From NCBI GenBank assembly GCA_012646105.1, contig GCA_012646105.1_4328.1: a DNA stretch of 43,583 bases; one strand, written 5' to 3'. Under the pieces are notes generated by a model. That model ran no database searches and was not told the DNA's origin. It worked only from the letters and a program-made list of their open reading frames with translations. The translations under genes and the position numbers were made by a program. The stretch is from a phage. Shown here one piece after another: positions 33,017 to 36,154 of this stretch (its first letter is position 1; every line of letters starts with the position of its first letter).

Positions 33017-33232
33017 TTAAGCCCCTTCACCGAACGCCAGCCACTTGGCGTCTACTTGCAGAACTTCCGCCAGTTTAAACAGCGTCGCCGGGCGGACGTC
33101 CTGAGTTACCCCAAGTGCAAGCTGGTTAATCGCGCCCTGGGAAACGCCGGCCAGGACAGCCAGACGGCGCTGGGAGATGCCGAGTTCTTTACGGCGTTGT
33201 TCTACACGGATGCCTAGTTCAGATGGTTGCAT
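33017..33232 (-). CDS. XRE/Cro-type HTH regulator (71 aa)
   Basis: LGISQRRLAVLAGVSQGAINQL helix-turn-helix; perfect RBS AAGGAG; divergent from plus operon. Confidence 0.7.
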   Translation of the reverse strand: MQPSELGIRVEQRRKELGISQRRLAVLAGVSQGAINQLALGVTQDVRPATLFKLAEVLQVDAKWLAFGEGA

Positions 33233-33252: not shown

Positions 33253-33325
33253 TTGATATGTGAATAGTACCATATTAATTATTTTAGAAAAGCCCATTGA
33301 CATGTGAATAGTTCGCTATTATAGT
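33253..33325. promoter_or_regulatory. divergent promoter/operator region with two operator palindromes
   Basis: TTGATA-N17-TAATTA and TTGACA-N17-TATAGT, each spacer containing TGTGAATAGT; leftward -10 TACTAT at 33269-33264. Confidence 0.5.
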
Positions 33326-34061: not shown

Positions 34062-34074
34062 CTACTTAACTTAT

Positions 34075-34098
34075 GGTGCCCTCGCTATTGAGGGCACC
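34075..34098 (+). other. perfect 9 bp stem-loop GGTGCCCTC-GCTATT-GAGGGCACC
   Basis: no T-run follows; possible attenuator or RNA processing site. Confidence 0.4.
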
Positions 34099-34116
34099 AA
34101 ACTGAGGGTCAGAATT

Positions 34117-34389
34117 ATGATTTACCAACTCTACCGAGCCGTAGACAGGCGGGATAGCACAGAGGCGTTATGGCTGTTGCGCGCTCCGTCCGGTGCGCAC
34201 CAGATGGAAGAGATGGCGTACTTAGGCAAAGTACCACGGCCTAAAGATATAGGCCGTCACGTGTCGCAGATTAAGCGCACGACTTTCGCCAAACCTGACT
34301 TTTATGTCTTCGAGTCGATGTATGGATGGGCGATGCATTGCCACCACCAGACACGACATTTAATTGACCAGTGGGAGAGCAGAGTATGA
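34117..34389 (+). CDS. hypothetical protein (90 aa)
   Basis: ATG 34117 with RBS GAGGG; ORF-track start 33979 overlaps upstream gene. Confidence 0.5.
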   Translation: MIYQLYRAVDRRDSTEALWLLRAPSGAHQMEEMAYLGKVPRPKDIGRHVSQIKRTTFAKPDFYVFESMYGWAMHCHHQTRHLIDQWESRV

Positions 34390-34883
34390 ATTGGCATGAA
34401 GTTTTTGACTATGACCCTGATACCGGTAAATTATTTTGGAAAATAAGTCCGTCAAAATCTGTAAAAATAGGGCAAGAAGCTGGCAGTACGAGGGAGGACA
34501 ACGACGGGAGTGAATTTAAAATACTACGTTTTAACGGGACTACTAAACTTATCCACCACGTAGTTTGGGAGATGTTTAACGGGCCGATAGCGCCGGGGGA
34601 AGTAATTCGTCATAAAAATAAAGATAGAACTGATAACAGAATAGAAAATCTTATAAAAATGCGCCGAGGTAGTATCGCACACGGCACCAACATACGGACG
34701 GACAATACTTCAGGGGTTAAAGGTGTTGGGTTTCATAAACGCTACGGTAAGTGGGTCGCGAGAATTTATGTAGACGGCAGGCCGATTTATTTAGGGGCCT
34801 ACGATAAGTTAGAGAACGCGGCTAAGGCTCGTAGGCAAGCCGAGATTAAATATGGGTTTACAGTTAACGGGGCTGAGAAATGA
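34386..34883 (+). CDS. HNH endonuclease with AP2-type DNA-binding domain (free-standing homing endonuclease)
   Basis: HHVVWEMFNGPIAPGEVIRHKNKDRTDNRIENL HNH motif; GVKGVGFHKRYGKWVARIYVDGRPIYLGAY AP2-like. Confidence 0.75.
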   Translation: MNWHEVFDYDPDTGKLFWKISPSKSVKIGQEAGSTREDNDGSEFKILRFNGTTKLIHHVVWEMFNGPIAPGEVIRHKNKDRTDNRIENLIKMRRGSIAHGTNIRTDNTSGVKGVGFHKRYGKWVARIYVDGRPIYLGAYDKLENAAKARRQAEIKYGFTVNGAEK

Positions 34884-36121
34884 TTCTAAAAGAACGCGGT
34901 GGCAATAACGATGTGCACGCCTTATTATCGCCGTCAGGTGCTAAGAAGTGGCTGACGTGCAGTGCATCACTGGCCTGTGAAAAAGATATTCCTAACACGT
35001 CTGGTAAAGCTGCCGTTACAGGGACCGCGTGTCACACCATAGCCGAGGTCCATTTAAATCAGTACATCAAAGGTACTGCGTTGCCGTTAGAGCGTGAAGT
35101 CGGTGCTTATGTGCTGGATGAGGGTAAAGGCCAGATTAAGGCGCTAATCAGTCCGATGAAAGGCGCGGTACTGATTACGGCTGATATGATTGAGCAGGTA
35201 CGCAAGTATACCGACTACTGCAAAGCGATTATCGATGTAGCGACTTACGCCAAGCTGGAAATGCGTGTCAATCTTACTGAGGTATTGCATCCCGGTTACG
35301 AAGGCGTTGGGACATTCGGAACTGCTGACCTTGTTGCCGTTCAGGAACTGGCGAACACAGACGAGCACATGCTCATTATCGGAGACCTGAAAACCGGACG
35401 GCACCGTGTCGAAGCGAAAGAAAACAAGCAGCTTATGCTTTACGCTCTCGGAGTTTATCGCCGACTCAAGAGACGTTATAACGTCACAGTTGTCCGTCTG
35501 GTCATCTTCCAGCCGTATGCTGGCGGTGCGTCAGAGTGGGATATCTCTGTTGAAGGCCTGGAACTGTTCGCTAAGTTCGCGCAGAAACGTGCGCTGTTAG
35601 CGTTAGATGCCTATTCCCGTGGCAAGAAGAACCTGAAAGCGTCAGACTTCAAGCCGTCTGTCGATGGTTGCCAGTGGTGCCGGTTCTCGGAACAATGCGC
35701 CGCACGTACAAAAACCGTTAACGCAGTACTGGTGGAAGAACTGGAAGACGACTTTGCGCTGGAACTTACGCCTGAGCAACTCGTGGCTGAGTATGAGAAG
35801 TTGCCGTTGTTGCGCCAGCACATCGATAAGGTCGAAAAAGCTATGGCTGCTGCGTTGCATTCCGGTAAGAAAGTGCCAGGGTACAAGCTGGTCGAGGGTC
35901 GTCCTGGTAATCGTGCGTGGAAAGATGCAGAGAAAGTAGCAGAACTCTACGGCGACAAGCTGACTAAAGACGTGCTCATGACGCCGACCGAAGCTGTTAA
36001 AGTAATACCGGAAGAAGAACTGAAAGACTTCATTACTCGTAAGCCAGGCGCGCCATGCGTCGCAACGGCGGACGACAAACGGCCTGAATGGAATCAGGTT
36101 AGTGAAGAAGATTTAGAATAA
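34880..36121 (+). CDS. Cas4/RecB-like PD-(D/E)xK exonuclease with Fe-S cysteines (DUF2800-like)
   Basis: GTADLV, IGDLKTGR, QLMLYA motifs; CQWCRFSEQC cysteine cluster. Confidence 0.7.
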   Translation: MILKERGGNNDVHALLSPSGAKKWLTCSASLACEKDIPNTSGKAAVTGTACHTIAEVHLNQYIKGTALPLEREVGAYVLDEGKGQIKALISPMKGAVLITADMIEQVRKYTDYCKAIIDVATYAKLEMRVNLTEVLHPGYEGVGTFGTADLVAVQELANTDEHMLIIGDLKTGRHRVEAKENKQLMLYALGVYRRLKRRYNVTVVRLVIFQPYAGGASEWDISVEGLELFAKFAQKRALLALDAYSRGKKNLKASDFKPSVDGCQWCRFSEQCAARTKTVNAVLVEELEDDFALELTPEQLVAEYEKLPLLRQHIDKVEKAMAAALHSGKKVPGYKLVEGRPGNRAWKDAEKVAELYGDKLTKDVLMTPTEAVKVIPEEELKDFITRKPGAPCVATADDKRPEWNQVSEEDLE

Positions 36122-36125
36122 AGTG

Positions 36126-36154
36126 TTGACACCTGAATAGTTAGCTATTATATT
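36126..36154 (+). promoter_or_regulatory. promoter TTGACA-N17-TATATT with TGAATAG-N4-CTATTAT operator in spacer
   Basis: consensus -35, upstream of 36208 gene. Confidence 0.5.

Follow-up and report, generated by a model that had tools for sequence, protein, structure and literature searches.

An optional HNH-AP2 gene with an altered catalytic site at a cassette-exchange junction in the replication operon of a Kagunavirus-like phage

HNH-AP2 proteins form a family of homing endonucleases of phages, cyanobacteria and protists, according to the work cited as ref. 45 of PMC10448857, and HNH-AP2 genes have also been reported in Xanthomonas phages (PMC2248197). A structurally characterised relative is I-HmuI, the intron-encoded HNH nicking endonuclease of Bacillus phage SPO1 (PDB 1U3E), whose conserved catalytic residues are D74, H75 and N96 (PMC12724721). 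Other endonuclease-family genes have taken different paths: T4 I-TevIII is a defunct homing endonuclease mobilised in trans by MobE (PMC2790892), and I-TevI acting as a repressor and the domesticated nucleases of ICP1 are discussed in PMC10448857. Here we analyse a gene, allele HNH-1, which like members of the HNH-AP2 family encodes an N-terminal HNH domain followed by a C-terminal AP2 domain, is free-standing, lies between conserved phage genes and is variably present. It differs from I-HmuI in not being intron-encoded and in that the C-terminal DNA-binding part of its product is an AP2 domain. In the reading that we favour below, HNH-1 would resemble I-TevIII, I-TevI and the ICP1 nucleases as an endonuclease-family gene whose persistence or function is independent of its own homing cleavage.

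The window, that is, the whole stretch of DNA analysed, comprises 43,583 nt (GenBank assembly GCA_012646105.1, contig GCA_012646105.1_4328.1) and derives from a Kagunavirus-like siphophage of the subfamily Guernseyvirinae. The 4 kb surrounding the HNH gene match 452 phage records, chiefly Salmonella Jerseyvirus and Escherichia Kagunavirus, with Escherichia phage EcoPhCCP1 as the best match (92% identity). The gene, defined from the ORF list, the sequence, Pfam and PHROGs, occupies 34386..34883 on the + strand, with its ATG at 34386 and its stop codon at 34881-34883, and encodes 165 aa. A sequence-only reading of the window had placed the ORF at exactly these positions and had described it as a free-standing HNH-AP2 homing endonuclease with a clear HNH motif.

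Both domains named in that reading were recovered by profile search. Pfam HNH_3 (PF13392) matched with 53.3 bits against a cut-off of 24.8, covering profile positions 2-37 of 46, and PHROGs assigned the protein to phrog_99, 'HNH endonuclease' (E 3.5e-51). The match to Pfam AP2 (PF00847), at 27.2 bits (E 4.8e-6), lies below the curated cut-off of 33.3, and is backed by solved AP2 domains: a single-sequence search against solved structures found the plant AP2 domain of WRI1 (E 1.1e-5), and a 26-sequence profile found WRI1 (1.6e-9) and TEM1 (3.1e-6). The same 26-sequence profile also found I-HmuI (1u3e, E 6.2e-6), which the predicted beta-beta-alpha-metal fold resembles over 103 aligned residues. 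More specifically, the protein begins with a beta-strand region (aa 1-54, 34386..34547, +) that includes a conserved F-DYDP-TGKLFWK hairpin, with predicted strands in this part of the protein at residues 7-10, 15-18, 34-37, 43-49 and 52-55. This region is followed by the HNH_3 beta-beta-alpha core (aa 55-100, 34548..34685, +), delimited by Pfam, the alignment and mapping onto I-HmuI, and by the AP2-type DNA-binding domain (aa 107-156, 34704..34853, +), whose three strands and single helix are predicted to form a three-stranded sheet packed on the helix, like solved AP2 domains. The two-domain HNH_3 and AP2 architecture is real, and we are highly confident that the protein is homologous to the HNH-AP2 homing endonucleases of phages and that its gene is a mobile, dispensable cassette. 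At E up to 1e-10, related proteins are encoded in 1665 phage records.

The ORF list, the sequence and a promoter scan also agree with the earlier description of the gene as free-standing, coupled to its neighbours by ATGA overlaps at both ends and set inside the replication operon. Its left anchor is a conserved 90-aa gene (phrog_4965; 34117..34389, +) and its right anchor a 413-aa DUF2800 / PD-(D/E)XK exonuclease (34880..36121, +; Pfam, PHROGs), which corresponds to the Cas4-like nuclease of the sequence-only reading and is labelled 'Cas4-like' in Raoultella phage RP180. Translation of the exonuclease reveals a C-x2-C-x5-C cluster in its C-terminal part (35660-35700, ...DGCQWCRFSEQCAAR...) together with N-terminal cysteines (LTCSASLAC), which we take to be the Cas4/AddB-type iron-sulfur nuclease pattern and which fits that label. 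At the upstream junction (34373..34389, +), a GGGAGAG Shine-Dalgarno sequence (34373-34379) lies 7-13 nt 5' of the HNH ATG, followed by an ATGA stop/start overlap (34386-34389); in relatives where the junction is empty, this Shine-Dalgarno sequence and ATGA are used by the exonuclease. The downstream junction (34869..34883, +) is part of the cassette and consists of a purine-rich stretch, GGGGCTGAG, and a second ATGA overlap (34880-34883), which is predicted to restore coupled translation of the exonuclease. A candidate sigma-70-like promoter (33297..33325, +; TTGACA-17-TATAGT, 11/12), found by consensus scan alone, precedes the gene, and the next strong promoter-like site is at 36126-36154. 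The scan from the promoter to the HNH gene gave no convincing promoter or terminator in between, and a search for a promoter of the cassette's own returned weak 9/12 matches inside the HNH gene, none of them convincing, so expression is taken to come from the operon. The predicted operon likely runs orf58 - orf175 - 90-aa gene - HNH - exonuclease, and is flanked by the primase-helicase gene on one side and by the genes for DUF2815 and DNA polymerase on the other.

Comparison of the junction with relatives bears out the suggestion that the gene is an optional insertion. The cassette proper measures 494 bp (34386-34879) and is missing from empty-site relatives (including L002); in Henuyfy11N, the 90-aa gene is joined straight to the exonuclease by a single ATGA (...GAGCAGGGTATGATTTTAAAGGAACGC...). 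The 494 extra bases open with the ATG of the empty junction and close with a new ribosome-binding stretch and ATGA. The HNH gene is thus a separate ORF rather than part of an intron or intein, and both neighbours are intact with and without the cassette. To survey the junction, 45 related IMG/VR loci were fetched with the 90-aa protein and the distance between the anchors was measured. Among the 43 loci that have both anchors, 23 are empty and joined by one ATGA, three carry the HNH-1 allele (L038, L043, L045), three an 85-aa DUF551 ORF, seven a 114-aa ProQ-C-like ORF (one frameshifted) and five 46- or 52-aa ORFs, single or combined; one contains a 67-aa HNH remnant that has lost about 300 nt internally, and one distant relative has an unrelated 188-bp spacer. 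Tandem combinations of small ORFs are also found at this junction. A parallel count of empty sites in GenBank, in which a 241-bp empty-junction query returned 169 records with at least 80% coverage, mixed empty and occupied sites because the search joins pieces up to about 620 bp apart; it was set aside and the IMG/VR census was used. All occupants start at the same ATG, use the upstream Shine-Dalgarno sequence and bring a new Shine-Dalgarno sequence and start overlap for the exonuclease. Since unrelated small ORFs occupy exactly the same junction, it is a general cassette-exchange site and not an endonuclease-specific target, and the presence of a gene there does not by itself show homing.

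In GenBank, HNH-1 is found in EcoPhCCP1, ZCEC5 and LM02P1, and two further alleles occupy the same insertion point with the same coupling: HNH-2 in Kagunavirus BCH953P1 (45% aa identity to HNH-1) and HNH-3 in Jerseyvirus phages such as horsemountain and SE-W109 (54-57%). The first ~27 codons of HNH-1 share 81-86% nucleotide identity with the other HNH alleles of the site (matches over nt 1-80 or 1-98). The 67-aa remnant (L011:3270-3470) derives from an HNH-2/3-like gene: some 145 nt from the 5' end and some 40 nt from the 3' end survive, the HNH core and AP2 domain having been deleted in frame; it is a decay stage of the endonuclease life cycle at the same site. Additionally, weak HNH-like matches (27-29% identity) at L046:5333-5578 and L049:2132-2539, about 2 kb downstream of the exonuclease start, suggest that some genomes have another HNH insertion site, distinct from this one and close to the DNA polymerase gene.

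In HNH sites, an Asp and an Asn serve as metal ligands and a His as the general base, as in Cas9 (D839/H840/N863) and T4 endonuclease VII (D40/H41/N62). We mapped these positions onto the window protein using the 26-sequence profile with I-HmuI and an alignment with 25 homologues. The His of I-HmuI (H75) is retained as H76 (codon 34611-34613), as are N83 (N84) and N87 (N88), whereas D74 is replaced by R75 (codon 34608-34610), N96 by I97 (codon 34674-34676) and N99 by G100, which adjoins His99 (codon 34680-34682). Only the His of the D74/H75/N96 triad is kept in HNH-1, which therefore falls outside the catalytic definition of the family. R75, H76, I97, H99 and G100 are invariant across five HNH-1 alleles. 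All homologues in the alignment except the two closest cluster representatives carry x-D-H...D-N-R...N-L-R...N..N, whereas those two and the window protein read V-I-R-H...N-L-I...S-I-A-H-G. The altered site is consistent with the truncated Pfam match of HNH-1, which ends at profile position 37 of 46, compared with matches of HNH-2 and HNH-3 over positions 1-44 or 1-45. HNH-2 and HNH-3 keep IDH...N..N and are thus better candidates for active endonucleases at the site. Accordingly, the 'clear HNH motif' of the sequence-only reading stands as HNH_3 homology with a conserved His76 and fails at the Asp and Asn positions; its term 'homing endonuclease' holds for family membership, but with Arg75, Ile97 and Gly100 in place of D74, N96 and N99 a working nuclease cannot be assumed.

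A HMMER scan of 1.84 billion cluster representatives identified 63,948 homologues at E up to 0.001. Among about 230 HNH modules in 186 homologues (the best 150 of the 63,948 plus earlier hits), D-H-N-N-N-N is kept in 165, and in this respect the HNH-1 clade, without the Asp and the Asn, is unlike the typical HNH-AP2 member. The degenerate modules are mostly the first module of two-module proteins with an intact second one, and single-module proteins that lack both the Asp and the Asn are rare among the scored homologues. For example, P0006, P0040, P0137 and others are tandem proteins of 250-360 aa in which a first HNH_3 module without the Asp and the Asn-bearing helix precedes an intact module and an AP2 domain. 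Degenerate HNH_3 modules thus seem, from these sequences, to have been reused as non-catalytic domains in tandem proteins. The first module of such proteins resembles that of the window protein in reading x-H ('IRH' in P0006), with the Asp lost and the Asn-bearing helix missing; unlike the P0006 type, with its second, intact D-H...N..N module, the window protein has the altered module alone.

These substitutions make catalysis by HNH-1 doubtful, to judge from the residues at the site. Against a loss of cleavage, His76 and the structural Asn84 and Asn88 are retained, and His99 could act as a substitute metal ligand. It lies 23 residues after His76 and is conserved in the HNH-1 clade; the spacing between H840 and N863 of Cas9 is likewise 23 residues, and a single protein ligand suffices in some beta-beta-alpha-metal nucleases. 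The structure prediction is least confident at the helix of the Asn position (mean pLDDT 64 for residues 91-100), and the homologue alignment contains no indel by which His99 could be shifted into register.

Five distinct HNH-1 alleles (the window, EcoPhCCP1, ZCEC5, L038 and LM02P1) were compared, and the reading frame is intact in all of them. For four of these alleles, with dS reaching 0.33, dN/dS is 0.04-0.11, and the same holds for each half of the protein. Within core codons 70-101, pairs among the five alleles differ by 4-8 synonymous and 0-2 non-synonymous changes. The whole HNH-1 protein, altered core included, is under strong purifying selection. Together with the invariance of the altered residues, this constraint indicates that the substitutions predate the HNH-1 clade and that selection on the protein continued after them.

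Composition and phylogeny indicate horizontal exchange, in agreement with the mobility proposed from the sequence. The HNH gene has a GC content of 43.0%, compared with 50.4% for the window, which places it in the lowest 3.7% of 498-bp windows, and its GC3 is 41%, compared with 53-60% in its two neighbours. Neighbour-joining trees of each flanking gene, which are star-like and weakly resolved, show the HNH-1 carriers scattered among genomes with empty sites. Between carrier pairs, dS is 0.11-0.35 for the HNH gene and 0.41-0.79 for the adjacent exonuclease, with the window/L045 pair left out; these two show no differences in the HNH gene or in the first 400 nt of the exonuclease, and share a near-identical block of about 2.1 kb (about 33.2-35.3 kb) outside which they show from about 4 to more than 10 differences per 100 bp. 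An AT-rich gene, scattered over the phylogeny of its flanks and less diverged than the exonuclease, points to a cassette that has been exchanged horizontally. Nuclease genes are known to sit at boundaries of genetic exchange (PMC10448857), and the exchange data presented here fit that pattern. They would look no different under ordinary recombination in the conserved flanks.

A further observation concerns exonuclease codons 3-4 (34886-34891), which read CTA AAA (or CTT AAA) at 17 of 18 occupied junctions and at 7 of 23 empty ones, the latter being mostly TTA AAG (Fisher p 3e-5, uncorrected for relatedness and counting occupied junctions whose exonuclease starts ATGATT). The exception is the HNH-1 carrier LM02P1, which has TTA for CTA (T at nt 7) without the AAG of the full empty haplotype. 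Judged on its distribution, the haplotype could be a footprint of co-conversion or linkage, or a target-site variant. The ~2.1-kb block and this haplotype fit co-conversion; non-nuclease cassettes are linked to the haplotype in the same way, and general recombination is an equally good explanation.

We consider it fairly probable, on the strength of these comparisons, that the optional HNH-AP2 cassette HNH-1 has lost canonical one-metal cleavage, persists as a sequence-specific DNA-binding factor or non-canonical enzyme and spreads by recombination in its flanks. The cassette begins at the start codon that the exonuclease uses where the junction is empty, and brings its own ribosome-binding stretch and second ATGA, by which translation of the operon would be preserved; the HNH gene would be expressed by coupling from the promoter near 33300. 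The cassette has moved between diverged phage backbones via homing, ordinary recombination in conserved flanks, or both. With the metal ligands replaced (Asp by Arg75, Asn by Ile97) and the general-base His76 alone kept, canonical one-metal cutting of DNA has most likely been lost. The protein would now use its AP2 domain and N-terminal strands for sequence-specific DNA binding; at most, it would be a non-canonical nuclease. The present spread would then rest on flank recombination rather than on the protein's own cleavage. Unlike the I-TevIII/MobE pair, HNH-1 has no evident partner: crude scans of the window for GIY-YIG, LAGLIDADG and D/E/H-H..N motifs detected no endonuclease able to mobilise it in trans, and a profile search of all six-frame ORFs in the window for a further HNH or AP2 gene found only the 34386-34883 ORF. 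As to what selection has kept, we tentatively suggest, at somewhat less than even probability, that the HNH-1 clade lost both metal ligands and was retained for a new role, either as a sequence-specific DNA-binding regulator or protector, or as a beta-beta-alpha nuclease with a rebuilt Arg-His...His site. One possibility for a protector is that it shields the junction from the intact HNH-2 and HNH-3 endonucleases of competing phages.

The main competing explanation, which we regard as rather unlikely, is that HNH-1 is a fully active free-standing HNH homing endonuclease that nicks or cuts HNH-less relatives near the junction during co-infection, with repair copying the cassette and adjacent flank. 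Its site would have to be a non-canonical R-H...H arrangement in which His99 is a metal ligand and Arg75 perhaps stabilises the transition state. The family consists of homing endonucleases (PMC10448857), and active homing would account for the presence/absence polymorphism at one exact site, for the shared ~2.1-kb block that spans the HNH gene, for the linked haplotype at codons 3-4 of occupied sites and for a divergence below that of the backbone; continued nuclease function would also predict the constraint on the nuclease core, with its invariant His76 and His99. Yet Arg75 and Ile97, which replace both canonical ligands, cannot bind metal, and His99 stays out of register. Moreover, the non-nuclease cassettes are equally scattered and carry the same linked haplotype, so a nuclease is not required for either pattern, and nt 7 of the exonuclease is the 'empty-type' T in LM02P1, a carrier. 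Substituted catalytic residues, together with the genuinely decayed HNH remnant that L011 has at this junction, might instead describe a recently inactivated pseudogene drifting towards loss; we consider this very improbable, since all five alleles retain an open frame despite differences at as many as a third of their synonymous sites, and the low dN/dS and near-invariant core rule it out. Even less probable is that the gene is not mobile and encodes a packaging-associated HNH protein of the HK97 gp74 type or another essential replication factor. Predicted co-transcription with replication and recombination genes would suit such a factor, but most relatives lack the HNH gene, and the 165-aa protein is of the HNH_3-AP2 type. 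A terminase-associated HNH gene of the HK97 gp74 type would be expected beside terminase or portal genes and in all relatives, whereas HNH-1 is variably present and, on the EcoPhCCP1 map, does not lie beside those genes; its position in the replication operon and its dispensability exclude a packaging role.

An HNH-AP2 gene as such is routine, the family being widespread in phages, and a 98%-identical protein in EcoPhCCP1 is already annotated 'HNH endonuclease'. A literature search returned no description specific to the HNH gene or the junction in Kagunavirus or Jerseyvirus. The existing annotation does not convey the altered catalytic site under constraint or the rich series of cassettes at the junction. 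An endonuclease homologue that lacks two catalytic residues yet is under strong purifying selection could be a repurposed selfish gene, and warns that the label 'HNH endonuclease', given by domain match, may overstate the activity of HNH-1. The junction itself provides a well-sampled natural series at one nucleotide-precise site (empty, three diverged HNH alleles, a deleted remnant and unrelated small ORFs), and is convenient for investigating how phage operons exchange optional genes while translational coupling stays unbroken.

A 71-aa HTH repressor-like gene (33017-33232, -) faces the operon promoter, and promoter-like sites lie back to back at 33297-33325 (+) and 33308-33281 (-); the arrangement resembles a divergent regulatory switch ahead of the operon with the HNH gene. 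A perfect GC-rich hairpin of 10 bp (34074-34099, UGGUGCCCUC-GCUAUU-GAGGGCACCA), located in the 55 nt that separate orf175 from the 90-aa gene, has a free energy of -22.4 kcal/mol (z -4.5) and is not followed by a T-run. Of 52 related loci, only 4 have this hairpin, and in one of these a G-C pair has become C-G by a compensatory swap; it could be an attenuator or an RNA-processing site.
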